This document shows positions 1 through 14,434 of a DNA stretch of 14,434 nucleotides, piece after piece. The stretch comes from Thermoplasmatota archaeon (lineage in GTDB: Archaea > Thermoplasmatota > Penumbrarchaeia > Penumbrarchaeales > Penumbrarchaeaceae). Below the pieces are notes generated by a model. It did not search any database, was not told the origin of the DNA, and worked only from the letters and a program-made list of their open reading frames with translations. Made by a program: the position numbers and the translations under genes. The stretch covers positions 1 through 14,434 of the forward strand of contig CBDDUX010000053.1 of the NCBI GenBank assembly GCA_965234725.1, read 5' to 3'. Numbering within the stretch: the stretch's first letter is position 1; each line of letters opens with the position of its first letter.

Positions 1-162
1 TCAAACCATATGGTGTCGTATAACTAAGGGTATGGTGTCGGGGACGGGGTTTGAAAGAATACTCAAAACTGTCAAAAATGATACTCAAAATGTAAGAATT
101 TCTTCTTGATGCCTTCAAGAGAGATCATAAGGAGCGATAGAAAAGGGCCCCTTCGGGGGCCT
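1..162 (+). repeat. Junction element J1 (TGTCG boxes + three-hairpin module)
   Basis: TATGGTGTCG occurs at 9-18 and 31-40 (22-bp period). GTGTCGGGGACGGGGTTT (35-52) is identical to 11625-11642, and ATGGTGTCGTATAACTA (10-26) is identical to 8099-8115. Stems: TTTGA/TCAAA (50-54/63-67), TCTTGA/TCAAGA (104-109/115-120) and GGCCCC-TTCG-GGGGCC (146-161). Confidence 0.75.
141..162 (-). terminator. Possible terminator function of the J1 terminal hairpin for ORF1
   Basis: On the minus strand the GC hairpin (161-146) is followed by CTTTTCT, ~50 nt after the ORF1 stop. It is also part of the repeat family, so this role is uncertain. Confidence 0.35.
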
Positions 163-211
163 ACATTTTCAACAAAGAATTGTTAAAACCATTCTTTCCC
201 GCTATCATAGA

Positions 212-3200
212 TTATAGGGTTCGATCCTGTATATCTGTACCTTCTAATTGGGATTTCTGAGGTGAGCCCAACTCCTGCTCAGATGGAGTAGATGGGATTT
301 TCTCCAATTCTAATTGGTCATTTTGAGAAGGTGGAGAATCGGATCCTTTCCTCTTTTTCAAAATGAGGAATACAACAATCCCGATTACTATCAGAATAAC
401 TAAAATGAGGATCACGATAATAACAAAAGGGAAACCTCCCTTGTCATCCTTCTTCTCTTTGATCAAAGGATCTGTCCCATCCTGATACTCTTGAAGATCG
501 GTCTTCCCGTCTCCATCAGCATCGTTATCTGCAGAAGGAGTTTTCGGATCCAGACCATGGCTGTCCTCCCAACCATCTGGCATCCCGTCATCATCGGTGT
601 CATCATTGAAGGGAAGGGTTCCATTCTTGTTTTCAAGTGCATTGGACATCCCGTCATTATCAGCATCGGCTTCTCCGTCAGATGGATCATCGATGGAGAG
701 GCCCCATTCGATCTCGATGAGGTCGGGGATGCCATCCGAATCGGTATCATGGTCTTGCGGAAGGACCTTCAGATTGAAAACAGTGGAATTGGTATTCCCT
801 TCTTCATCTGAGACAGTGACGGTTATCTCGTAATCTCCGGAAGAAGTCACGGTTCCCTTCAATTGGTTTCCATCAACACCGATCGGAGCTCCCTGCCATG
901 AATATGATACTATTCCAATATTGTCAGCTGCTGTGATCGTGACATCAACATCCTGTCCCTCATAGATCGTGATATCATCGATGGGTTCGATCTCCGGAAG
1001 AATAATATCTTCAATCTCCAGATTCAATATCTCGGTAATATTCTGGTTGTCACTTGAATCTTTCACAATAACATTGTAAAACAGAGGGCCAGCCTCATCA
1101 ATGGCTATAGATATCTCATGTGTGAAAATATTACTATCTGAAGAGAGAATTATCTTTTGATGAGTTGTGTTTGCGAACCAGTATTCGAGTTCCAGGTCAC
1201 TGATCTCGATATTATCCCAGACTTCAAAATAGAATTCGTAACTTCCACCTGTTTCCAGTTTTTGTGAATATCCTGTCAAATTAATCAAAGGAATAAAATT
1301 ATCTATTATAGTAATTTCACCAACATCTCCAGAAAACCAGTTCTGGGATGTATCTACAAACGAAATCTTATATGAAAGTGGAACTATGGATCTGAAAGGA
1401 AGTGCTACCTTCTTCCAGTATTCGTCATTCCCATTAAAGGTCATGGTAACATTTTTGTGCTCAGCATCCTCATACCAATATTCCAACATTGAAGACTCTA
1501 TCTCTACGTTGTCTGTTGCTCTAACTCTGATCTCAATGATCTCTCCGGTAGATCCTTGATCGGTGGACATATTCTCAAGGATCTTGGGTGACTCCATATC
1601 CAAAACGATCACTTGTCTGATCTTTGAGCTATTTTTATTGCCTGATGAGTCCGTTGAATGGAACATGTAGAACAGGGTTGAAAGGGAATCGCTTGGTAGA
1701 TCGATAGTGTAAGAATAGACTGTTCCTCCCATCAGTGAAATGTTTTGATGCTCACCATTGCCAAACCAGAATTCAAGATGAACACTTTCCACCTCTATGT
1801 TATCGATTATCTTAATCGAAATTGGGATTGAACTTCCGGTTGTTGAAGAATTGATTGGATTAATCTCAATAAATATTGGGAGATCATCATCCTTGACTGT
1901 GACTGTTTTCTCCATTGTCCTATTCCAATTACCAGATGTATCTACTGCAAGGAAAGAGTAATAAATTAACTCAATAGAACCTGACGGTATTGAAAGGCCA
2001 TAGGTCCAAGTGTCAGATGAAATCATATTCATTGTTAGATTACTTGATTCAGTAATCCCAAACCTATACTCTAAATGGACCTTTTCAACATCGATGTTGT
2101 CTAAAACCTGAACTTTAAAGAGAAATGAATTACCTGTTGATGCAATCGTTCCGGTCATATCATTAATAATTTTAGGACGATCGTAATCAAATATATCAAT
2201 CTCCATCTGCTCGGTTGTATTGGTGTTCAGATAAACATCCTGAGCCTCAAAGTAGTAGACCACTGATGAAAGGTCATGATGGATCAATAGGGATGTAGAC
2301 CAGTTGATATTATCTTCAGTCACTAGATCAATAGATCCGAACGAAGGAGATTCCTGTTTGAAAAATAACTTAACGGACATTAGTTTCACATCATCTGTTA
2401 CTGATGCATTGAGGACCAAGATCTCTCCGGTTCTTCCGTGTGTAATATTGCTGTAATAATCGTAGGTTGGTTTGATAGTGTCATCGGCGAGGTAAATATT
2501 ACTATGGTCTGATTCACCTATTAAATTTAAAGCTTTGACTGAATAATAGTATCTTGTTCCTATGGTTACATTTTGATCTATGAAGAAATTCACAGGATGA
2601 GAACTGTACTTCAGGGACATGCTGCCTATCGAGGTTCCTCTATAGATATCATATCCTATTATCTGAGAACCACCATTGGATATTGGCACCTTCCAACTCA
2701 GGTAGATACTATCGGATCTGACCGTAGCATTCAATCCGGTTGGAGAATCGGGAGGTGAATCTGATGTTATTTTGGTTACTCCCCAATCCTCCATCCCATT
2801 GAAGCTTGTATCATATGCTCCGGTAGTTGTAGGGTAACCTGTAGAATCAACTCTTCCGGTTGTGTAGACGAAATCGTTCGAATCCACAACGATTCCCTCT
2901 GAATAATCATTAGAGGTACCTCCAAGATATGTTGAAAACAATAATGATGAAGCATTTTTATCGAGTTTGAAAACCAATGAATCAGTCCCCCCAGAATTAA
3001 TAGAAAAATCTGAATCTTCTGACATCGGAAAATTGGTGGATTTAGTATATCCAGAAACCCAGATGTTACCCCTTGAATCGAAATCCAAATCACTTATTGT
3101 ATCTGACCCAGATCCTCCAATTAAAGTGGAGTATGATAATGAACCACCTGTAATATTCAAATTCGTAACGAAGCCATCTGAGTTACCCACTATTGAATTA

Positions 3201-4849
3201 CTATAAGCACCGGATGTAACTGGGAAATCGGTAGAAGAGGTATAACCAGCTACTGTAGCATTGTTATTAGTGTCCAGAGCAATACCTTGGATATAATCAG
3301 AAGAGCTTCCTCCGAGATAGGTGGAATATATCAATGAGGAACCAGCGGAGTTTATTTTGAAAATAAAACCGTCTTGACCATCATTCTTTGAGGTATCATA
3401 TGCTCCCAAAGTTGTTGGAAAATCTGATGATTTTGTATTACCTCCAACATATGCATTACCGGATGCATCCACAGCAATCTCATTACCAATATCAGTATCT
3501 GATCCACCAACCAAAGTAGAATAAGAGATAGCACCTGTACTTCTACTGATCTTCATTACGAATACATCACCTATTCCATCATAAGAGGTATCATAGGCAC
3601 CAGAACTTGTGTAGAAATCTTCAGAATATGTATATCCGGTGATATAAGCGGAACCTGACCCAAAAAGTTTGACTCCATTTGCATAATCGCTGCTCGTTCC
3701 TCCGATATATGAGGCATATGACAAGGCATTGCCTTTGGAGTTCAGAACCACAATGAAACCATCTGTTGTCCCTCCTATGCTAGTATCATTTGCACCTGAT
3801 GTCGTTGGGAAATCAGAGGATCTTGTATACCCTGCTACGTATGCATTTCCTGAGGAGTCAACATCAATACCATAGCCATATTCATTGCCGGTTCCACCAA
3901 TGTAAGTGGAATAATCAAGGGAATTACCAGAATAATTCAATTTAATGACAGCCACATCCTGACCGCCATTATGGCTTGTATCGTATGCACCAGAAGTGAT
4001 TGGAAATGCATTTGAACAAAAACCAGTTACGTAAGCATTCCCAAGAGAATCCACATGCATATCAAAAGAGCGGTCCCATGTGGTTCCACCCACAAAGGTG
4101 GAATATATCAATGGATCAATCACGATCTTCCTCGACTTGTCAAAATCACCAAGATCAAATGAATATCGATCTTCATTTATTCCAATGAACTTGCAATTAA
4201 TCGATTCCTCTATATCGTTTGAATAGAAAACGCGAAGATCATCTTCACAAATATCCGGTCCATTCTTAATCTGAATATTAATGAGGTCATCTTTTACCAC
4301 AAGATCATCGTGACCATCTACTTCGACAAGAATATCCCCTGGATCTGCACCTTGATTAATAATAAATTCATATTTCAGCTTTCCATCTGAACCTCTGAAA
4401 AGAAGGTCGATCCCTTCCCAAATATCCTCGTATAATACCTCTGAATAGCTCGGAATATCTATTGCCCATTTATCGGGATCGTCACCAATTAGAAAATTAG
4501 TATTTTTTGATATTACCTTCTGACCAACAGGTTCAACTCCATTTGCACCAATGAACGAATACTTGAGTACATGTCCTGAGCTTTGGTCCAAATTAATATC
4601 AAGAAAGAAAGAATCTTCAGATAGAGCGATCCTTCCAAATTCTGTGTTACTAATGAAAAAAATATGATCTTCCCATTGACCCTCGTTCTTAATAAAATGA
4701 TCGAAAGCCAAATTAAAGGGTTCGATAGCCCTACCACTATAGATGTAGGCATCTTCTAGGTCCGTGGTTGCACCTGTTTTAGAAATCTGGGTAGAACTAA
4801 TTACTATAATGATTAAGGCTACAAAGCTCATCTTGGAAGTATTATTCAT
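212..4849 (-). CDS. Large membrane-anchored cell-surface protein (1545 aa): SBBP beta-propeller repeats, fibronectin type III domain, ~6 Ig-like repeats, TSP3-like DxDxDG Ca-binding repeats, C-terminal TM helix
   Basis: N-terminal hydrophobic signal (MSFVALIIIVISS). The N-domain motifs FIKNEGQW, KYEFII..GADP and IDP are typical of SBBP-repeat proteins. Repeated 'YST(Y/F/L)(L/I/V)GG..D....I.VD..GNAYV.G.T.S.DFPTT.GAYD' units follow. The FN3 signature is PDSPTGL..IYLSW..GYDIYRG..YYYSVKA.N..GES. Later come DTDSDG/DADNDG/DTDDDG/DADGDG repeats, then TM FPFVIIVILILVILIVIGIVVFLIL followed by KKRK. Confidence 0.9.
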   Translation of the reverse strand: MNNTSKMSFVALIIIVISSTQISKTGATTDLEDAYIYSGRAIEPFNLAFDHFIKNEGQWEDHIFFISNTEFGRIALSEDSFFLDINLDQSSGHVLKYSFIGANGVEPVGQKVISKNTNFLIGDDPDKWAIDIPSYSEVLYEDIWEGIDLLFRGSDGKLKYEFIINQGADPGDILVEVDGHDDLVVKDDLINIQIKNGPDICEDDLRVFYSNDIEESINCKFIGINEDRYSFDLGDFDKSRKIVIDPLIYSTFVGGTTWDRSFDMHVDSLGNAYVTGFCSNAFPITSGAYDTSHNGGQDVAVIKLNYSGNSLDYSTYIGGTGNEYGYGIDVDSSGNAYVAGYTRSSDFPTTSGANDTSIGGTTDGFIVVLNSKGNALSYASYIGGTSSDYANGVKLFGSGSAYITGYTYSEDFYTSSGAYDTSYDGIGDVFVMKISRSTGAISYSTLVGGSDTDIGNEIAVDASGNAYVGGNTKSSDFPTTLGAYDTSKNDGQDGFIFKINSAGSSLIYSTYLGGSSSDYIQGIALDTNNNATVAGYTSSTDFPVTSGAYSNSIVGNSDGFVTNLNITGGSLSYSTLIGGSGSDTISDLDFDSRGNIWVSGYTKSTNFPMSEDSDFSINSGGTDSLVFKLDKNASSLLFSTYLGGTSNDYSEGIVVDSNDFVYTTGRVDSTGYPTTTGAYDTSFNGMEDWGVTKITSDSPPDSPTGLNATVRSDSIYLSWKVPISNGGSQIIGYDIYRGTSIGSMSLKYSSHPVNFFIDQNVTIGTRYYYSVKALNLIGESDHSNIYLADDTIKPTYDYYSNITHGRTGEILVLNASVTDDVKLMSVKLFFKQESPSFGSIDLVTEDNINWSTSLLIHHDLSSVVYYFEAQDVYLNTNTTEQMEIDIFDYDRPKIINDMTGTIASTGNSFLFKVQVLDNIDVEKVHLEYRFGITESSNLTMNMISSDTWTYGLSIPSGSIELIYYSFLAVDTSGNWNRTMEKTVTVKDDDLPIFIEINPINSSTTGSSIPISIKIIDNIEVESVHLEFWFGNGEHQNISLMGGTVYSYTIDLPSDSLSTLFYMFHSTDSSGNKNSSKIRQVIVLDMESPKILENMSTDQGSTGEIIEIRVRATDNVEIESSMLEYWYEDAEHKNVTMTFNGNDEYWKKVALPFRSIVPLSYKISFVDTSQNWFSGDVGEITIIDNFIPLINLTGYSQKLETGGSYEFYFEVWDNIEISDLELEYWFANTTHQKIILSSDSNIFTHEISIAIDEAGPLFYNVIVKDSSDNQNITEILNLEIEDIILPEIEPIDDITIYEGQDVDVTITAADNIGIVSYSWQGAPIGVDGNQLKGTVTSSGDYEITVTVSDEEGNTNSTVFNLKVLPQDHDTDSDGIPDLIEIEWGLSIDDPSDGEADADNDGMSNALENKNGTLPFNDDTDDDGMPDGWEDSHGLDPKTPSADNDADGDGKTDLQEYQDGTDPLIKEKKDDKGGFPFVIIVILILVILIVIGIVVFLILKKRKGSDSPPSQNDQLELEKIPSTPSEQELGSPQKSQLEGTDIQDRTL

Positions 4850-4856
4850 GAATGGA

Positions 4857-4910
4857 CCACCTGGGATAAGGGGATTTTTTCATTAGGTTGTTATCTATAT
4901 TAATTTTTTC
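4857..4910 (-). promoter_or_regulatory. Putative archaeal BRE/TATA promoter and ribosome-binding site of ORF1
   Basis: The minus strand reads GAAAAAA-TTAATATA (4910-4896), and AGGTGG (4862-4857) lies 7 nt before the ATG at 4849. Confidence 0.5.
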
Positions 4911-5031
4911 TCAGTTATTTCAGCAAAAATATCATTGATGAATAATTTATTTTCATTATTTGAAATTATTCCCATTTTAGATTACAACATAAAATACCTC
5001 TATGAAAGAGTGGAGATTCGGACCTATCTCC

Positions 5032-5211
5032 AAGTGTCGGAATGCAATAGATAAGTGTCGGAAACGGGGTTTATCTAGTTAAGTCAAATAACCTGGAAAA
5101 TGCCCCGAAAAACCCCTTTTCGAGAAAAGATTTCCGAGCGGATGACGGATGGAAACGGTCCGGACCAAGATGAAAAAGAAGCCCCTTTCAAATGTGTCGG
5201 AAGGGGCTTCA
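5032..5211 (+). repeat. Junction element J2; 158-nt copy (5054-5211) nearly identical to 11624-11779
   Basis: AAGTGTCGGAA occurs at 5032-5042 and 5053-5063 (21-bp period). Manual alignment with J4a shows 8 substitutions and 2 single-base indels in 158 nt. Stems: GGGGTTT/AAACCCC (5066-5072/5110-5116), TTTCC/GGAAA (5131-5135/5151-5155) around GGATGAC, and GAAGCCCCTT/AAGGGGCTTC (5178-5187/5201-5210). Confidence 0.9.
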
Positions 5212-5377
5212 ACATTTGAATATCTTTCATTATTCGTATGTATTGAACTACACAGTAATTTTTGATGTTATTTGAAGGCATATATCGATCGATTAGTGTC
5301 CAATTCAAATATGGATTCGTACTAAGGATGAGAAATGTCCATTGACCATCTTCGGAAAGCCAGTTTGCTAGTATCTT

Positions 5378-7915
5378 CTATGTTTGTGGTGCAAATGGAT
5401 TTTCCATTAATGGATAGTTATCTAGCCCTAGATGAGGCAATCCAATATCTCCGATTCCGTCTCCGGCGAATCGACCGTCAGCTCCATTATCAAGGCCTGA
5501 ATAATCATCCCAATAATTTCCCTCCCCCTGCCCGTCATCCCAATCATTGGCCATGTTTGAGATAGCCTGGATATTATTTCCAATGAAAGCGTTATGATGA
5601 ATATCATTCCCGGATGAATTGTCGATCTTTAGGCCAATTTCATTTTGACTCATTGCATTCATATTTATCGAGCATTCGTCGGAATAAAAGATCAATATTC
5701 CGGATTCATTATTATCCATACAACTATTTTTCCTGATGATACAATCATCCGAATCGCTCATCCTGATACCGACTCTGAAGGAAATACAGGTATTGAATAT
5801 GATCTGATTTTCCTTGGAGGAATATATCTCGATCCCGTAAAAGGAACCGTTGAAGCACAGATTATTCATTATACTATTATTCTCTGATTGATGCCCTACG
5901 AAAATGCCGCAGTTACTATTATTGCCGCAATAATTATCGAAAATTTCGTTGCCGGTCGATCCCTGGACCACTATGCCTCTTTCGTTTTCATTGCAAGTAT
6001 TTTTAACTATTTTGTTCCAAGAAGATGAAATGAAGATGTTGATCCCTCCCCCCCAATTGTTCATTACTTCATTCGAATTCAATTTATTGTTTGAACATCG
6101 ATCTCTCAACCATATCCCGTCCCCATTGTTCAGATTAATTGAATTCTTTGAAAGGATATTGAATGAGGACCTCTCCAATTTGATCCCTATTCCATCGAAA
6201 TTTGTACCGTACCCATTTCGATTGAACTGATTCTCCCTTAACAGATTGAGGTCAGCTTCATCCAGCCATATACCTTCATGATTGTCATTATACCGGTTGT
6301 TCGATAGAACATTATTTTTTGAATTTCGAATGATCATTCCTATCCATTCATTATTGGAGCAGCTGTTGTTCTTATAGGTGTTATTCGAGGAATCCCTGTT
6401 GATCATTCCCACCCTATTCTCCTGGATATTATTACCCTCTATTGAATTATGATCAGATATAACATCAACATTGATGCCGAAATATTGGTTTGATATTTGA
6501 TTACCGGTCAACGAGTTATCAACAGCTCTTTGCAGGTACATACCATTCCAGGTGTTGTTATCGATCATATTTCTTGTAATATCATTATTGGAGGACCCCT
6601 CCAGGAGTCCGATCCCTCCACCGTTGGTATTATTGCCGTTTTTATAAAATCCATTATTGTATATTGTATTCCAGGATGAGTTCCACAAATACAGCCCGAA
6701 CAGATGGTTCTTCTCGAAATGGTTCCTTTCGATCGTGATCCTATTCGAATGGATCAATCTCAGCCCATTTCCAAGAGGAGAAGAAAATGAAGAGTTCAGA
6801 ACACTCACATTTTCGGAAAATGCGATGATGGTTTCCGTTTTCAATTCAACAGAATCGATCATAAAATCAAATGAGCTAGCTACAATAAGTTGTCCGATGT
6901 CTTTTAAAATTTCCATGTTTTCCTGGTTGGATATGTAATGAATTGGTTTTGATATCACAGTGTTGGTCATATCCATTGAATGGGAATCGTAATGCTCCCT
7001 GATATCTCCATTTAAAATGATTCCAACACCACCAAAGGTATTGTTCACTAGAATGGATCTGCAGCAGGAATCAAGTTCCAATCCGGTTCCTATAAATTGA
7101 TTGTTTTCGAAGCTGATATCATCGGAATCTGTTATCACCACTCCCTCCCATCTTTGTGATTTGATCCGGTTGGAGGAGATCTCCATGTTCGTGGAACTTT
7201 CGATGTTGAGATCTGTTAATCCCTGCTGAGCAAAGGTGTTGTTCTCAATTTTCGTACCTGTAACATCTCTGATACTTATACCTTGATAATTCTCTTCTAA
7301 ATGGTTTGAATTTATCCTTACAATAGAGGATTCAACGGATTGTATCCCGATCTGAGAGTTCAATGAGATATCGTTACGGATCACTTCAATGTCCGACGAT
7401 CTGCCCTCAATGAAGATCCCGTTCCCTCCATTTTCAATGATCTCGTTTTCAATGATACTAACTGAAGAAGATCTCCTGATGATTATTCCCATTCCCTGAT
7501 TAGATCTGATGACATTTCGAGAAATGATCGCGTTGCTGACATTTTCAAATATCATCCCTGCTTCGTCGTAGTAATCATTCGGCGGCCATATCATATCTTG
7601 AAACATGGGGATAGAAGCGTTCTTGAACGTACAATTTCTGATCATGAAATGGGCATTCGTATCTTTCACGAGAATACAATATCTGCTCTCTTGAGGATCA
7701 GCAACAATATCCTCGATGATAAAAGGGTCCTCACTTGTGCCTGTGCCATCTGATATACCATTTTTAGAAATGAAATCTGAGTTGCTAGAAATTATAATGG
7801 GGATCTTGATATCGATCTCTTCTTTCTTTTCGTCACTACTTCGACTAATACATCCAGCAATGGAAACGAAAAGCAATAATGCTGCTGTTAGTGATACTGC
7901 TGCCTTTCTATTCAT
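5378..7915 (-). CDS. Putative lipoprotein with long right-handed parallel beta-helix (NosD/CASH/PbH1-like repeats)
   Basis: The ORF track gives 5378-7942, but the second ATG (7915, MNRKAAVSLTAALLLFVSIAGC) gives a classic basic-hydrophobic-lipobox (IAG-C) signal. Many 'GI.I..S.N..I..N.I..N' repeats follow. It also has GTGTSEDPFII near the N-terminus and a C-terminal NDWDDG..EGNYWDDY.G.D...DGIGD......DNYPL motif typical of archaeal NosD-domain surface proteins. Confidence 0.85.
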   Translation of the reverse strand: MNRKAAVSLTAALLLFVSIAGCISRSSDEKKEEIDIKIPIIISSNSDFISKNGISDGTGTSEDPFIIEDIVADPQESRYCILVKDTNAHFMIRNCTFKNASIPMFQDMIWPPNDYYDEAGMIFENVSNAIISRNVIRSNQGMGIIIRRSSSVSIIENEIIENGGNGIFIEGRSSDIEVIRNDISLNSQIGIQSVESSIVRINSNHLEENYQGISIRDVTGTKIENNTFAQQGLTDLNIESSTNMEISSNRIKSQRWEGVVITDSDDISFENNQFIGTGLELDSCCRSILVNNTFGGVGIILNGDIREHYDSHSMDMTNTVISKPIHYISNQENMEILKDIGQLIVASSFDFMIDSVELKTETIIAFSENVSVLNSSFSSPLGNGLRLIHSNRITIERNHFEKNHLFGLYLWNSSWNTIYNNGFYKNGNNTNGGGIGLLEGSSNNDITRNMIDNNTWNGMYLQRAVDNSLTGNQISNQYFGINVDVISDHNSIEGNNIQENRVGMINRDSSNNTYKNNSCSNNEWIGMIIRNSKNNVLSNNRYNDNHEGIWLDEADLNLLRENQFNRNGYGTNFDGIGIKLERSSFNILSKNSINLNNGDGIWLRDRCSNNKLNSNEVMNNWGGGINIFISSSWNKIVKNTCNENERGIVVQGSTGNEIFDNYCGNNSNCGIFVGHQSENNSIMNNLCFNGSFYGIEIYSSKENQIIFNTCISFRVGIRMSDSDDCIIRKNSCMDNNESGILIFYSDECSINMNAMSQNEIGLKIDNSSGNDIHHNAFIGNNIQAISNMANDWDDGQGEGNYWDDYSGLDNGADGRFAGDGIGDIGLPHLGLDNYPLMENPFAPQT

Positions 7916-8059
7916 ACTCGACTTCCATATATCAATGATCATGAAGAATTAATAATACTTTGGTACAGGAGTGTAACAAAGTTGATCTTCGTTTGTTTTT
8001 ACTAGTATTTTTTAAAGGCCTGGACTGAATAAATTGATTGACTCTGACCTGTTTGACTC

Positions 8060-8238
8060 TGTCGCGTTCTAACCCTGTTATGTCGGAAAACTAGGGTAAT
8101 GGTGTCGTATAACTACCCCAAATTTGGAAGATCAGGGTTTGTTTCCTTCCTCAAAGCTCAATAAAAACCCATAAAAATATTGAATATTGATTGGATGCCA
8201 ATATTCAGAGCTACAGGGGAAGGACCTCTTCGGAGGTC
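8060..8238 (+). repeat. Junction element J3 between the divergent ORF2 and ORF3
   Basis: TGTCG occurs at 8060, 8081 and 8103 (21/22-bp period), with a 17-nt identity to J1. Stems: GGGTTT/AAACCC (8135-8140/8165-8170), TGAATATTG/CAATATTCA (8181-8189/8199-8207) with loop ATTGGATGC, and GACCTC-TTCG-GAGGTC (8223-8238). Confidence 0.7.
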
Positions 8239-8346: not shown

Positions 8347-8388
8347 TGTGGTTTGAAAAAACCAAGCATAAGTGTGGGATGGGATAAT

Positions 8389-11300
8389 ATGGGATTTAAG
8401 AATTATGTGAAAATATTAATCGTGGTCCTACTTGTAGCTATCGCATTTTCGCCCATGCTAATGGACATGGGGGCAGATGCAGAGGAAACAAGAGCCCCGA
8501 ATTATTACGGCCATATCACTTCCGATGCAGTCTGGAGTGGTATCAAATGGTTCGATGACGTGATAATCGATCCCGGAGTAACCGTGACTGTCAATAGCGG
8601 GACTGTACTCCACCATTACAGCGGCTCCTACCTGTGGGTGCAGGGAACCATGATAGTGAAGGGAAAGGAAGGGAACCCCGTAATGTTCGGGGATGAGGAC
8701 AGTATCAATACATGGGACGGTATAACTGTAAACGAAACCGGCCTGGTGGATTTCGATAACTTCACCATCCAAAAGGTTCACGACTCATATGATGTCCTCA
8801 CCCTACTTGGGCAGCCCAGTAGGGTCAAGAATGGTATGATAATCGGAGGATATAACGGGATCGCTACGGGCATTTCCGCCGGAGGGCATCAAATCGAGGG
8901 CATAAGATTCATCGGTCAGAATTCCATAGGAATGGTCTTTCGGGAGAATGTCGATGATATGATCGTGTCGAATGTTTCGATAATGAATGTCAAATGGGGG
9001 GCCATCGTAACCTCATCAAGCCAGAATATCACAATCAAAAATGCGGTCACAGATGGCGGATATTACGGATATGCTGCAACCGGAGATCCCAGTACACCGG
9101 GAAGAAACATCACCTTCATCAACTGCGTTCTCAACAACAGAAGCGCAGTCGGACCAACGAACGGGTTCTGGATGGAAAATAATATAGACAATATCCATGT
9201 CATTGGCGGAAGAGTGGAAAATTGCGCCCATGGGGTTTACTTCAACTGCTACGGTAACGCAGGGATCAAATTCGAGGATTTCAGCACCTCGAATACCGTC
9301 GATGATGCGATATATGGCTTTTCTACGGGTGAGTTCTCAGCTTCGTTCGTGAACTGCGATCTGGGGTCCTCCGTGAATACCGCAAATATGACTGCTGTGT
9401 CTCCTCAAAGGGTCGAGCTGATCAACACCTCCTACACCGAATTGTCTAATTTCGATCTATTCGGCGATTGCATCGTCAACATCAGCTATTTCACGAATGT
9501 CGAGGTCCTGAACGGAAACGGGGATCCCGCGGACGTGAACCTCGAGATCTATCCATGGGGACTCGGTAATGTATTCGATGACCGGCTGGCGGACGGATGG
9601 CTCGATAAATATCAGCTCCAAAGCGTAGTGATAGACGAGACGGATAGGTACAAGATCCTTCACGATTTCAGAGCGAAATCCGTTCTTCCTTCCGAATCCG
9701 AGGTTGAAATGAATGAGGTATGGATAACGGGATACGGCACCATCAGCCTGTTTATGGACCTGGCCCCGTACAACAACTTCTCCACAGAGATCGAATTTCA
9801 GGAGGATGACAAGTTCGATATCGGACTTTACGATTACTTCGTCGATCCGGAAGGAGAGGATTTCACATGGGATATTTCAACCGGACCGGAACTCGTTCAC
9901 CATCTGATCCAGGCTCAGAAGACACTCAGATTGGAATCTGCGGAGGTAAACTGGTTCGGGACCAGCTGGGTGTACATCAACGCAACCGACGCGGGAGGTA
10001 ATTGGACTGATGTGAACGCCACCGTAACCGTTACATCCGTGAATGATCCACCTGCCCTAGTCCAGAACCTTCCGGAGCTTACCACACCGGAGGATACGCC
10101 GGTATGGCTCAACTTCTCCGGAAGGGCCGAAGATGATGATGGAGATTCCCTGACCTGGAGCGCCGAAGAGATCGAAAACTGCATGCTGTCATGGGACGAA
10201 TCCGGGTTGAACCTCACTGTCACACCCGATGAGAACTGGTTCGGGATCCTTGAGATCCCGGTAAAGGTCTCGGACGGAACGGTGAACCCCGAATGGATCC
10301 TGACAGTGAACGTCACACCGGTAAACGACATGCCAATGGTGAAGGTCCTATGGTCAAACGGAACCGAAGCGGAGCAGGTTGAATACGCCTGGAACGAGAC
10401 AACCAACATCACCGTGTGGGAGATCGATACAAAGGAGGACGTCCCGATCGAGTTCGGATTCTACTACGACGACGTGGAGACGGATGAACCCGCTTCCATC
10501 CTCATATACAGCGATCTTATGCACGGAGCCTTAGATCTCACGGTCTATCAGCGGGAGGAGATCGTGAACGAGACAACCAACGAGACCGCAATGGTGGATT
10601 ACACCATTACCTCAAACTACACCTATACTCCGGATGCGGACGACTTCGCAGGGGATCTGATCCAGTTCAACATATCTGACGGAGTGGGGGAGGTTACCCT
10701 CTGGATCTGGTTCAACGTGAAGTCATTGAATGACAGACCCGTCTTCAATGCTCCCGACGAGTGGAACGTCAGCGTCGAGATCGACAACGAGACGGTAATA
10801 GATATCGGCACCTGGATATCCGACGTGGACGGAAACGTCCTGTCCATATCCGTTGATCCCGATGAATTCATAACCATCAACGGAACACAGCTCGAGATCC
10901 TCTACAACGATACATTCGAGGGGGATCACCAAAATGTTACCGTGACCATATCGGACGGTGTCCTGACCGCCGGAGCGGTCCTCCTAATCAACGTAACAAG
11001 AGGGGAGGGACCAGGTCCAGGTCCTGAGGGCGAATTCAATGTCACCCATCCCGAGGTGAAATCCACTGAGGACGGATGGACGATCACCGTGGAAGGTGAG
11101 GAAGGACAGAGCATCTACCTCGCCGTTGTGGATGATGACGGACCGGGGACATTTTTTGAGATGGACTACGAGGACGGAAAGTACATTGTTACCGTCGATA
11201 AAGACGATGCCGATGAGGGATTTGACTACTACTTCACAGACGAGGACGGGGGGGATCAGCTCCTTGACGGAGGGTCACTGCCCTCGCTCAAGAAGGAGGA

Positions 11301-11424
11301 GGAGAAGGACGAGCCTTTCCCGTGGTGGATAGTTGCGATGGTCCTCGCGATCCTCCTCATCGGTGTGATCATCCTCCTGTTCATCGTAATGAGTGCGGGC
11401 AAACCCGATATGGACGAGGAGTGA
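8389..11424 (+). CDS. Membrane-anchored surface protein: N-terminal parallel beta-helix, cadherin/tandem-95-like Ig repeats, C-terminal TM
   Basis: The ORF track starts at TTG 8353, but ATG 8389 (MGFKNYVKILIVVLLVAIAFSPML) gives a better signal peptide. Beta-helix motifs include IIDPGVTVTV..G, G.EGNPV.F and WDGI. Cadherin-like linkers include VTVTSVNDPP, VNVTPVNDMP, VKSLNDRPVF, T.ED and D.DGD.L. The TM FPWWIVAMVLAILLIGVIILLFIVM precedes a short acidic end (DMDEE*). Confidence 0.88.
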   Translation: MGFKNYVKILIVVLLVAIAFSPMLMDMGADAEETRAPNYYGHITSDAVWSGIKWFDDVIIDPGVTVTVNSGTVLHHYSGSYLWVQGTMIVKGKEGNPVMFGDEDSINTWDGITVNETGLVDFDNFTIQKVHDSYDVLTLLGQPSRVKNGMIIGGYNGIATGISAGGHQIEGIRFIGQNSIGMVFRENVDDMIVSNVSIMNVKWGAIVTSSSQNITIKNAVTDGGYYGYAATGDPSTPGRNITFINCVLNNRSAVGPTNGFWMENNIDNIHVIGGRVENCAHGVYFNCYGNAGIKFEDFSTSNTVDDAIYGFSTGEFSASFVNCDLGSSVNTANMTAVSPQRVELINTSYTELSNFDLFGDCIVNISYFTNVEVLNGNGDPADVNLEIYPWGLGNVFDDRLADGWLDKYQLQSVVIDETDRYKILHDFRAKSVLPSESEVEMNEVWITGYGTISLFMDLAPYNNFSTEIEFQEDDKFDIGLYDYFVDPEGEDFTWDISTGPELVHHLIQAQKTLRLESAEVNWFGTSWVYINATDAGGNWTDVNATVTVTSVNDPPALVQNLPELTTPEDTPVWLNFSGRAEDDDGDSLTWSAEEIENCMLSWDESGLNLTVTPDENWFGILEIPVKVSDGTVNPEWILTVNVTPVNDMPMVKVLWSNGTEAEQVEYAWNETTNITVWEIDTKEDVPIEFGFYYDDVETDEPASILIYSDLMHGALDLTVYQREEIVNETTNETAMVDYTITSNYTYTPDADDFAGDLIQFNISDGVGEVTLWIWFNVKSLNDRPVFNAPDEWNVSVEIDNETVIDIGTWISDVDGNVLSISVDPDEFITINGTQLEILYNDTFEGDHQNVTVTISDGVLTAGAVLLINVTRGEGPGPGPEGEFNVTHPEVKSTEDGWTITVEGEEGQSIYLAVVDDDGPGTFFEMDYEDGKYIVTVDKDDADEGFDYYFTDEDGGDQLLDGGSLPSLKKEEEKDEPFPWWIVAMVLAILLIGVIILLFIVMSAGKPDMDEE

Positions 11425-11623: not shown

Positions 11624-11779
11624 AGTGTCGGGGACGGGGTTTATCTAGTTAAGTCAAATAACCTGGAAAATGCTTCGAAAAACCCCTTTTCGAGAAAAGA
11701 TTTCCGAGCGGATGACGGATGGAAACGGTCCGTACCGAGATATAAAGAAGCCCCTTTCAATGCGTCGGAAGGGGCTTCA
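11624..11779 (+). repeat. Junction element J4a; direct repeat of 5054-5211
   Basis: About 94% identical to J2 by manual alignment, offset 6570 bp, same orientation. Terminal stem GAAGCCCCTT/AAGGGGCTTC at 11747-11756/11769-11778. Confidence 0.9.
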
Positions 11780-11809: not shown

Positions 11810-11895
11810 AAACTGTAAAAAATGAAATGATCTCTTTTGGATGTCTTCAAGAGAAATCCAAATACATATCAGAAAAAGGCAAGGTTTCGGGGTCC
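11810..11895 (+). repeat. Junction element J4b; diverged copy of the J1 downstream module, tandem to J4a
   Basis: AAACTGTAAAAAATGA (11810-11825) matches AAACTGTCAAAAATGA (66-81) at 15/16. GATGTCTTCAAGAGAAATC matches GATGCCTTCAAGAGAGATC at 17/19, followed by the same 12-nt spacing to AGAAAA(A/G)GGC and then TTCGGGG. The stem TCTCTT/AAGAGA (11831-11836/11849-11854) is present, but the last hairpin is degenerate. Confidence 0.65.
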
Positions 11896-12001: not shown

Positions 12002-14434
12002 ATGAAGAAATTACACATTTTGGTTATTGGAATGATATCTATTTTCTATTTGTCTGTTCTTACAATTTTTCCTTTGTATTCCGCTGAGATTACTTCAAGA
12101 CATTCTGGAGACATTGCTGATGCAACATATGGTTCTAACTCGGTAACTATCGATGGAACCATTACCACTGGAGAATGGAATGACGCAAATACTATCAACT
12201 TGGTCAGCGGAGGTGACTCTCTAACGATTTATATCAAGGAGAATGGAATGGATCTCTATGTTGGTTATCAATGTACATCGAAATTCATTTGCGATATTTA
12301 TCTTGATGTCGACAACAATGGTGGAACAACTCCTCAAACTGACGACTTCAGACTCCATGCATCCTACATGGTTTATGAAATGTCAGGGACAGGTTCAGGT
12401 TGGAATAATGGGATCAATCCTGTTGGGTGGTCTTCCACCATCGGTCACACAATGGAAAGAGAATTTCAAATATCCTATGACAAGATCGGTATTACAGCAG
12501 GTGAAGATAAAACAATTGGTATTGCTTTTGTCGTCATGTCTGAATCGGCGACATTCTACTGGCCCACTGGTTATACAAGAGATAATCCAACCACATGGGG
12601 AGATCTGACATCATCAGATTGGTGGACCACGGAAAAACCTACTCAAAATAATCCTCCCGTTCTTTCCGATAACAATGCCTCTCCCACTTGGGGAACCACA
12701 GAGATCGAATATACTTTTTCAGTTGAATACAGCGACAGTGATAATGATCAGCCCACCATTAGTTCAGTCTTCATTGATGATGTTGAAAGAATAATGACAA
12801 CTGGAGATACAACTTACGATGATGGAAGTGTTTTCACATTAACTACCAGTCTTCTCGAAGGGGACCACAATTATCATTTCCTGTTCAACGATTCCGAAGA
12901 AGAGGTGAGGTTCCCTGAAACCGAAGATTTTTCCGGCCCTACCATTGTGCTTCCAAATGAAGCTCCAGATCTCGATGAGGGGGGAATTCCAAATGGTACC
13001 TTTTTTATCGATGAGGATACCGGACAGGGAAATAATCTGGTTGACCTTGAAACCTATTTTTCTGATGACAGGGATGATGGATATCTTCTATTCGAGATTG
13101 TTTATCAAGAGAATTCCCTGAAACTCAATGGAGACATTGATGGGAATTATTTGGATATTGAACAGATTGAAGAGAATTGGTTCGGAACAATGACCTTCCA
13201 AGTAAAAGCAACTGACAAGGGAATCGATGGTATCAGTGGGACCATTGATGATGCATCCACGATCAGCAATTTATTCGAGATCTCGGTTAATGGAACCAAT
13301 GATATTCCATCAATTTTATCAATAGGTCCCAGAGATGCAGCAGAAGGGGAGATCGTAGAATTTGTAGGCCTTTCCTCGGCACAAGAGGATAGATGGTTCA
13401 ATCTCACTATTACTGCAACTGATATTGATATTGAAACCGGTGGAGATGATGAACTGGTTTTTTGGGTTAATTCCACCCTGTTTTCATTGGTGGAAGATCC
13501 TTATGATCCATTCATCGCCAACCTTTCTTTCCTGCCCACAAATATTGATGTGGGGACACATCATATTCAGGTTGGTGTTGAGGATCTTTCAGGAAATAAT
13601 GATACTGTTGATGTGGTCATTGAAGTTGAGAATATAAATGACGACCCATTCATAGAAAGCATCAACCTAAATGGGTTAAATATTGATGTTACAGAAGAAA
13701 CAATAACTTTTTCTGACACGATCTTTGCCGAAGAAGATAAATGGTTCAATTTCTCGGTTATCGCAAAAGATGATGATCAAAGTATCAGGGAACCAGATGA
13801 ACTTGAATATTCGATAAATATCTCCAATCCCAATTTGCAGATCGATAAATTGACCGGAAACATCTCCTTTTTACCCACTCAAGATGATGTGGGTTTCCAT
13901 TACCTGAATATCTCTGTAATGGATAGTTTCGATATGGACCCAGATGATCATATACATGTGATCATCGAGGTCAGGAATACAAATGATCCTCCTTCTCAAC
14001 CATTGGCCACCTTTGAAACAGGGGGTGAAAATATAATGGAAGGGGATTACCTGAACATGACAGCCTTTTCTTCTGATATTGATATGGAATATGATCCCGA
14101 TGAATCGCTTTATTTCACATGGGTGTCAGATATAGATGGTGTTCTTGGATCTGGTAACACGATACAGGTCAATACTCTCTCCTTGGGATCACATAATATT
14201 ACATTGACGGTAACAGATCATTATGGTGCAGGTTCCTATATCAAATTCAATGTGAACGTTTCAGCACTTCCCGTTATCAACGATACCATTCCTGACGATG
14301 ATGAGGTCTTGGAGGATAAAACAGAGAAAAGTCCATCGATATTTGGTTTCATAATTATTATCGCTGCTGTTGTTTTGATATTGATAGGTGGAAAGGTCCA
14401 ACACATCGTTTACCCTAAAAGGCTCAACACATCG
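12002..14434 (+). CDS. Secreted/membrane-anchored surface protein (partial, runs off window): N-terminal DOMON/CBM9-like domain, then cadherin/Ig/PKD-like repeats and a C-terminal hydrophobic segment
   Basis: It is absent from the ORF track, presumably because no stop codon is reached before the window end. I translated both ends by hand in the same frame and spot-read motifs in between. The N-terminus reads MKKLHILVIGMISIFYLSVLTIFPLYSAE...VTIDGTITTGEWNDA...LYVG...DIYLDVDNNGG...EREFQISYDKIG. Internal linkers include NNPPVL, VNGTNDIP, VENINDDP and VRNTNDPP. The end reads ...SPSIFGFIIIIAAVVLILIGGKVQHIVYPKRLNTS. An alternative in-frame ATG is at 11972. Confidence 0.85.
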   Translation, partial: MKKLHILVIGMISIFYLSVLTIFPLYSAEITSRHSGDIADATYGSNSVTIDGTITTGEWNDANTINLVSGGDSLTIYIKENGMDLYVGYQCTSKFICDIYLDVDNNGGTTPQTDDFRLHASYMVYEMSGTGSGWNNGINPVGWSSTIGHTMEREFQISYDKIGITAGEDKTIGIAFVVMSESATFYWPTGYTRDNPTTWGDLTSSDWWTTEKPTQNNPPVLSDNNASPTWGTTEIEYTFSVEYSDSDNDQPTISSVFIDDVERIMTTGDTTYDDGSVFTLTTSLLEGDHNYHFLFNDSEEEVRFPETEDFSGPTIVLPNEAPDLDEGGIPNGTFFIDEDTGQGNNLVDLETYFSDDRDDGYLLFEIVYQENSLKLNGDIDGNYLDIEQIEENWFGTMTFQVKATDKGIDGISGTIDDASTISNLFEISVNGTNDIPSILSIGPRDAAEGEIVEFVGLSSAQEDRWFNLTITATDIDIETGGDDELVFWVNSTLFSLVEDPYDPFIANLSFLPTNIDVGTHHIQVGVEDLSGNNDTVDVVIEVENINDDPFIESINLNGLNIDVTEETITFSDTIFAEEDKWFNFSVIAKDDDQSIREPDELEYSINISNPNLQIDKLTGNISFLPTQDDVGFHYLNISVMDSFDMDPDDHIHVIIEVRNTNDPPSQPLATFETGGENIMEGDYLNMTAFSSDIDMEYDPDESLYFTWVSDIDGVLGSGNTIQVNTLSLGSHNITLTVTDHYGAGSYIKFNVNVSALPVINDTIPDDDEVLEDKTEKSPSIFGFIIIIAAVVLILIGGKVQHIVYPKRLNTS
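14389..14434. mobile_element. Probable terminus of an IS481-family-like insertion sequence interrupting the 3' end of ORF4
   Basis: The sequence is TGGAAAGGTCCAACACATCGTTTAC-CCTAAAAGGCTCAACACATCG. It starts with TG and contains AAAGG(TC/CT)CAACACATCG twice (14392-14408, 14418-14434; 15/17 identical, 26-bp period). The ACATCG(T/G)TTAC motif ~14 nt in from a TG end resembles IS481-type ends as I recall them. The ORF4 hydrophobic helix stops abruptly here. No transposase is visible. Confidence 0.5.

Follow-up and report, generated by a model that had tools for sequence, protein, structure and literature searches.

Hairpin-bearing junctions of a Thermoplasmatota contig as probable hybrid attachment sites of elements integrated in tandem at a tRNA-Met gene

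The DNA described here, termed the window, is an entire 14,434-nucleotide (nt) contig (14.4 kb; G000:C53) of a Thermoplasmatota archaeon, in which four long surface-protein genes alternate with related, hairpin-rich junctions (J1, J2, J3, and the two-part J4a and J4b). Each junction is probably a hybrid attachment (att) site, produced by tandem integration of elements at the 3′ end of the elongator tRNA-Met gene in a Thermoplasmatota family. The hairpins are very probably part of the far att arm of these tRNA-targeting elements, because a complete element in a related genome, G009, has the same module at the same spacing, together with an integrase that reads toward the tRNA. For the last hairpin of the arm, a role as terminator or 3′-end element is the best reading, about as likely as not. 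The observations that carry this reading are the identity of the junction tails with the tRNA end, arrays that run from the tRNA gene, recent transfer of a cassette from tail to tail, and the integrase-bearing member with the same arm.

The motif at the start of each junction corresponds, in reverse complement, to the 3′ end of a CAU tRNA gene with an intron, located at G000:C75:14887-15005. ARAGORN assigns this gene to Ser, which is a miscall, and assigns near-identical genes in G005, G007, and G011 to Met; elimination of the other two CAU genes suggests that it is the elongator tRNA-Met. The J1 copy (33..55, − strand), which spans the T-loop, the T-stem, the 3′ strand of the acceptor stem, and CCA, consists of 20 nt identical to the C75 gene end plus the CCA. 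J4a has an exact 18-mer (11625..11642, − strand), J2 has the 18-mer with two mismatches (5055-5072), and J3 has a variant tail that is about 21 nt longer. This means that a direct repeat matching a host tRNA 3′ end stands at the junction boundaries, with J3 as a lengthened variant. With up to 2 mismatches allowed, 20 sites on 11 contigs match a 17-mer of the tail, and 18 of these 20 lie on array contigs. A tRNA-Thr gene was also considered as the source of the last hairpin and rejected, as the sequences do not match; only one further copy of the tRNA-Thr tail was found, with 3 mismatches.

In the orientation of the window, a junction would consist of the P′ arm of the left cassette (often with 21-22-nt phased repeats), the tail copy as core, and the P arm of the right cassette, the last being the 110-160-nt structured region singled out by the first-pass annotation. 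On the P′ side of J1, the CGACACCA motif occurs a second time, at a distance of 22 nt from the tail copy (11..32, − strand; CGAC at offsets 11 and 33). After the core, the + strand of J1 presents a spacer with A-tracts 9 and 13 nt apart (53..97; 9-11 in other copies checked) that is possibly bent DNA, a middle dyad or weak hairpin around GATGCC at 108 (98..125), and the last hairpin with its c(TTCG)g loop, preceded by an A-tract and followed by a T-tract (146..161). The spacing of A-tracts in the arm is 9-13 nt in J1, J2, J3, and G009, with one extra 17-nt gap in J2. The P′-side repeat of J2 (5034-5040) lies 21 nt from its tail copy (5034..5072 together, − strand), and its end module (5073..5211, + strand) has GATGAC at 5141 and a long last hairpin at 5178-5210. 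J3 contains three phased CGACA repeats (offsets 32/54/75) and the variant core (8059..8140, − strand), followed by a diverged end module (8141..8238, + strand) with a stem at 8181-8207 around GATGCC (8194) and the last hairpin at 8223-8238, then T6. The end module of J4a (11643..11779, + strand) finishes with a last hairpin at 11747-11778 and a T-tract. J4b is a truncated module without its own tail copy (11814..11895, + strand); it retains GATGTC at 11840, and its last hairpin is decayed (−0.7 kcal/mol). The hairpins reported earlier were read directly at their places, namely GGCCCC-TTCG-GGGGCC in J1, GACCTC-TTCG-GAGGTC in J3, and GAAGCCCCTT..AAGGGGCTTC in J2 and J4a, and the GATGNC motifs do lie 29-38 nt before the last hairpin in J1-J3.

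The module after the tail occurs in two main forms, A (J1, J4b) and B (J2, J4a), which can be aligned to each other and to J3 and which also form hybrids. In G000, the A form has 21 matches and the B form has 10 elements, with two further B rows set aside as self-matches of a palindrome. A covariance model (CM) finds the module in 11 of 24 family genomes compared to none of 13 other genomes of the class that were searched. It is this recurrence, within one genome and across the family, that makes the junction pattern more than chance. Tail copies or modules follow an intact tRNA-Met gene in G000:C75, G001, G003, G005, G007, and G011, and the G009 element likewise adjoins one, so that arrays start at an intact tRNA gene in all of these genomes; in G004:C13, a 20-kb array extends up to a tail at the contig end. 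A co-oriented tail is found within 260 nt upstream of 37 of 67 ends. Genes for AbiE and ParE toxin-antitoxin systems, surface proteins, and enzymes are among the array cargo. One AbiE cassette of 1875 bp, a tail-bounded transfer between species, has 99.3% identity in G000:C106 and G004:C13, with the limits of the match in G000 lying 0 and 13 nt from the tail. Another match begins exactly at a tail, and many older, more diverged cargo matches stop at other points.

The complete element, of about 4.75 kb, was reached through a PF00589 search of the family and lies in the Thermoplasmatota record G009:C69. Its order is a tail copy (24-38), an A-type module (70-159), cargo, a transcription-regulator-like gene, a 94-amino-acid (aa) gene, the integrase, and tRNA-Met. 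The module scores a CM E-value of 1.9e-4 from outside the training set, and the distance from tail to hairpin end is 110 nt compared to 109 nt in J1. The integrase is a 388-aa PF00589 tyrosine integrase, the one example of an integrase-bearing member, in which the catalytic motifs (R, K, HxxR, H, and Y) are visible and intact. It is encoded on the + strand and reads toward the tRNA, and therefore the + strand of the window is the integrase sense strand. Between integrase and tRNA are phased tail-like repeats at 11/32/53/75, which can be compared with 11/33 in J1, 11/32 in J2, and 32/54/75 in J3. Six other proteins, with 54-63% identity, make up the small family of this integrase.

The 94-aa gene directly upstream (L177:3302-3586) has histone-fold clusters as its nearest Atlas clusters (0.92; PF00808 in 29% of the first cluster). 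Its product gave nothing significant in PDB and Pfam searches and no PHROG support, and it is offered, as a lead only, as a candidate DNA-bending accessory factor. A 407-aa open reading frame (ORF) upstream of two A modules was considered and is not an integrase. A XerA-like integrase behind tRNA-Thr (C44, C102) is a less likely mobilizer, since it is present in only 3 of 24 genomes and was not found in three same-genus genomes with tRNA-Met arrays, although in G000 it leads into B-type junctions. As a separate observation, a related ~175-aa gene follows all three tRNA-Thr genes (G000:C44:19666-21807, C102:5401-8345, and C20:1-668; L136, L137), and in C44 and C102 it is followed by the XerA-like recombinase, a B-type junction, and an array. 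No tRNA-Thr tail copy was found.

Pairing in the last hairpin is maintained through changes of sequence, as had been claimed. Between J1 and J3 there are two double changes (G-C to A-T and C-G to T-A), and in an unfitted MAFFT alignment of 43 ends, which excludes five weak matches and includes J3, pairing in the hairpin stands at 78%. Each of its 7 pairs shows double changes, amounting to 35 double-change cells compared to 16 in shuffles (0/500). In 11 copies outside the model, it is 86% paired (0/500 shuffles) on a model-fitted alignment, which leans toward structure. The covariation attributed to the middle stem turned out to be slight: the stem is 82% paired in the unfitted alignment, with double changes at only 3 of 11 pairs and many mismatch types, and comparison with 500 shuffles gives 9-20 on three measures and 453-474 on two. 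The shared C(TTCG)G loop holds for J1 and J3, but TTCG is found in only 10 of 31 filtered rows, the others having TTT, TTTG, TTCA, TAAT, GAAA, CTCG, and more; this filter missed most B-type hairpins and took in 2 unrelated ones. The GATGNC motif is present at 108, 5141, 8194, and 11840 in the window but is the best loop match in only 32 of 73 ends. A T-tract follows the last hairpin in 16 of 31 rows compared to a 25% background, and an A-tract precedes it in 25 of 31, a count biased by an anchor that demanded an A.

The last hairpin is likelier to fold on the + strand. Its G-T wobbles favor that strand 14:1 across 36 A and C hairpins in a polarity-neutral register (some rows being replaced, non-homologous hairpins), those of 18 B hairpins do so 18:7, and the + strand gives the better fold in 38 of 43 copies under RNA parameters and in 31 of 43 under DNA parameters. 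Folding of whole junctions as + strand RNA is only modestly better than that of shuffles, with z values of −2.7 (J1), −1.8 (J2), −1.3 (J3), −3.7 (J4a), and −1.0 (J4b). Terminator scoring marks J3 and J4a on the + strand and J1 on the − strand, with 9 sites window-wide compared to 9.8 expected, and elsewhere in G000 ordinary genes are followed in two cases by similar tetraloop hairpins with U-tracts. It had been argued that J3 needs no terminator because it lies between divergent genes. This argument fails because the hairpin moves as part of the att arm irrespective of the next gene, and the gene next to the 67 ends is on the + strand in 34 cases, on the − strand in 26, and of unknown strand in 7.

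Several points weigh against att arms with an RNA-level hairpin. No tail lies near 28 of the 67 ends, and 2 more ends are at contig edges. The G009-type integrase is present in 1 of 37 class genomes, with a single complete element seen, and by profile in 2 of 401 phylum genomes, one of these being a distant match; the family profile did not find it in G000, whose assembly is fragmented and has seven other PF00589 genes. No excision joint, either circle or empty site, was found in the contigs of two DNA runs, X1 and X2. The copies are related, so the shuffle figures overstate covariation, and a tree on 56 columns is too weakly supported for counting independent pair changes. The strand preference weakens on the MAFFT columns, where wobbles are 12:4 (P 0.08), or 7:3 without the outer pair (P 0.34), and wobbles of the middle stem are 8:8 by pair type, with no strand bias. 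Finally, the archaeal terminators that have been studied are U-tracts with no strict need of a hairpin (PMC8716108).

The first-pass annotation had proposed a stand-alone guide or recognition RNA, and this would be a discrete + strand small RNA with antisense orientation to the tRNA end and a role in regulating or guiding integration. The covarying last hairpin with its UUCG loops and single instances of CUCG and GAAA, the better folding of the + strand, and the terminator-like 3′ end all speak for such an RNA. It is nevertheless quite unlikely: only 9 of 35 tails have a TATA-like motif in the 70 nt before them, its position varies, and the upstream DNA is that of whichever cassette adjoins. 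In addition, the middle stem is weak, RNAalifold gives no consensus structure on the gappy alignment, Rfam 15 returns sub-threshold matches but none at the gathering score, and the fold of the G009 copy does not surpass those of shuffles (z −0.8). A free non-coding RNA has no positive support beyond one covarying, terminator-like hairpin, and the stand-alone form proposed earlier was not borne out, given that the junction opens with the antisense tRNA-Met 3′ end and has no promoter at a fixed distance.

A reading in which the hairpins matter as DNA only, as protein-bound dyads or cruciforms whose arms are matched by template switching or gene conversion instead of by RNA selection, is unlikely. 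GGGCCC is self-complementary, the loops vary widely, phased repeats and A-tracts point to binding of double-stranded DNA, and wobble polarity is non-significant in one of two counts. However, the wobble intermediates are mostly on one strand, T- and A-tracts flank the hairpin, and the tetraloop types seen in it are typical of RNA.

Folding of the arm as a single-stranded DNA (ssDNA) substrate was also part of the first proposal, and the arm would then itself be recombined like the bottom strand of an integron attC site. The integron-like arrays and the folding bias toward one strand suit it, as do several copies that keep the 5′ arm of the last hairpin and lose the 3′ arm, and B-type hairpins that hold a degenerate tRNA-Met-like tail. 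Integron attC sites have core pairs of the consensus RYYYAAC...GTTRRRY, but none were found on either strand of the 4 junction regions. Moreover, cassette homology ends at the tail, with the hairpins 40-150 nt away from it, and DNA folding differs little between strands. The integron attC model was rejected for the missing core pairs and for cargo that is not mostly co-oriented, and an ssDNA substrate of any such kind is improbable.

Much less probable still are non-autonomous casposons or miniature inverted-repeat transposable elements (MITEs), for which the tail copies would be target-site duplications; this reading is largely refuted. A solo Cas1 (407 aa) does lie beside tRNA-Leu CAG on G000:C59, and tandem integration of casposons is possible (PMC10359463). 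However, the three complete window cassettes have no terminal inverted repeats (best local score 4-6 in 40 nt), the end at which the C59 element starts is a different one, G-rich and placed after the tRNA end and downstream bases, Cas1 of any kind is present in only 5 of 24 genomes, and the complete member in G009 carries a tyrosine integrase. The casposon-like element at tRNA-Leu CAG (L102; G000:C59:1-2396) is an observation in its own right, and its G-rich end recurs on C55.

For att arms of tRNA-targeting elements, the following mechanism is proposed. A tyrosine integrase supplied in trans would excise and insert the cassettes that lack an integrase. The phased repeats, A-tracts, and middle dyad would be putative binding or bending sites for the integrase and a histone-fold accessory protein, while the last hairpin may act as RNA, on + strand transcripts. 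Once a circle has been excised, transcription of the integrase operon would continue across the core into the arm, where the hairpin and U-tract would end or stabilize the transcript. The A-tract would form a U-tract in the opposite direction and could insulate neighboring cargo.

These elements fit tandem accretion at tRNA and transfer-messenger RNA (tmRNA) ends, as described for the ssrA islands of Dehalococcoides, in which integrative and cis-mobilizable elements that target tRNA or tmRNA genes accumulate in tandem (PMC3146451). In both cases, units are stacked with a copy of about 20 bp of the gene's 3′ end at their boundaries, and some units have a reverse-strand integration module beside attL while many have none. 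The units here differ in their archaeal host and in that the recombinase is a tyrosine instead of a serine recombinase, each unit has a conserved multi-hairpin arm, and nearly all units seen lack an integrase. The tycheposons of Prochlorococcus (10.1101/2020.12.28.424599) also integrate repeatedly at one tRNA, with tRNA-Met among the targets, displace older units, and leave partial tRNAs, but they carry an integrase and often replication genes, whereas no replication module was identified here. Classical (non-suicidal) archaeal tyrosine integrases (PMC8371274) similarly have their att site in the tRNA 3′ end, use intron-containing tRNAs, and restore an intact tRNA; the G009 integrase differs in belonging to a small family without an assignment among the named ones and in having a histone-like gene directly upstream.

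In phage lambda, sib/tI lies beyond attP. It is a retroregulation element and, like the arm proposed here, a structured element downstream of int that is reached only in the unintegrated state (PMC5300877). This is a likeness of working only, with no sequence relation, and RNA processing or termination by the arm is a conjecture. Integron cassettes and archaeal CALINs (10.1101/2022.02.06.479319) resemble the units in forming arrays of cassettes with one to a few genes, in toxin-antitoxin and surface-protein cargo, and in often lacking a linked integrase; they differ in that the boundaries here are tRNA tails without attC cores and the cargo lies in both orientations. Among the titles and abstract openings covered, no description of these Thermoplasmatota elements was found. 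A scan of a genome collection for the integrase returned only the G009 element itself, a metagenome pattern scan for the ends gave only 2 short loci, and viral contigs gave no matches for two end patterns and for the integrase.

The four cargo genes of the window are a 1545-aa surface protein with DUF7948, SBBP propeller, fn3, and PKD domains (212..4849, − strand), an 854-aa beta-helix (NosD-like) protein (5378..7942, − strand), a 1023-aa Ig/cadherin-like surface protein (8353..11424, + strand), and a surface protein with an Ig-like domain that is open at the contig end (11972..14434, + strand). The third has 51% GC compared to 39-40% for the other three, which is consistent with a separate origin. 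No assembly link joins the window contig to the tRNA-Met contig C75. A contig of run X1 fuses the last 50 nt of the window (14385-14434) to tRNA-Ala-like tail sequence, and the end of the window may belong to another tRNA-tail module that cuts the last ORF there. At the J3 middle stem (8159-8207), a single 151-nt contig of run X2 (depth 2) matches and then runs into a different hairpin with a GAAA loop.

Other cargo is found elsewhere. Cassettes of five genomes (G000:C22:7553-13990; L052, L059, L048, L054) hold all or part of a single-chain acetyl-CoA carboxylase (2108-2145 aa; ACC_central, on the G003 copy), with 75-88% DNA identity, and a CRISPR-Cas operon lies directly behind an A-type end (G000:C106:251-11777), with a Cas1 fusion by PF01867 in the single gene checked. 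An A-type end with a degenerate tail occupies the same place in G000 and G004 (G000:C27:35679-35808 and L138:10089-10195), next to a putative aminoacyl-tRNA synthetase gene, and could be a secondary insertion site. Many other tRNA genes of G000 are followed by 125-220-nt gene-less hairpin modules, each ending in the tail of that tRNA (G000:C20:24850-25491, C2, C5, C10, C14, C63, C76, C77, and C109). Four 143-nt gene-less units lie behind tRNA-Arg GCG, and one gene-less module lies inside the tRNA-Met array. One cassette has, in place of the last hairpin, a different tail that resembles tRNA-Leu and pairs with an inverted repeat of its own (G000:C106:13994-14030; L049).

A selected hairpin-type terminator in an archaeal att arm would be mildly surprising, because the archaeal terminators that have been studied are mostly without hairpins. 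It is also conceivable, if highly improbable, that the transcript across attP of an excised cassette, with its antisense tRNA tail and arm, is an RNA encoded in cis through which a histone-assisted tyrosine integrase is controlled or even addressed. If so, gene-less and integrase-less modules would be docked behind many tRNA ends, and tRNA genes would bear RNA-dependent, integron-like cassettes. As the far att arm, the candidate orphan RNA would become a defined part of a cassette system in uncultured sediment archaea. Complete att arms, a candidate integrase, and a candidate accessory protein are available from the G009 element, so that this system could be tested in vitro. Through such a system, toxin-antitoxin pairs and surface proteins of very large size would move among these archaea, as would a CRISPR-Cas operon and a single-chain acetyl-CoA carboxylase.

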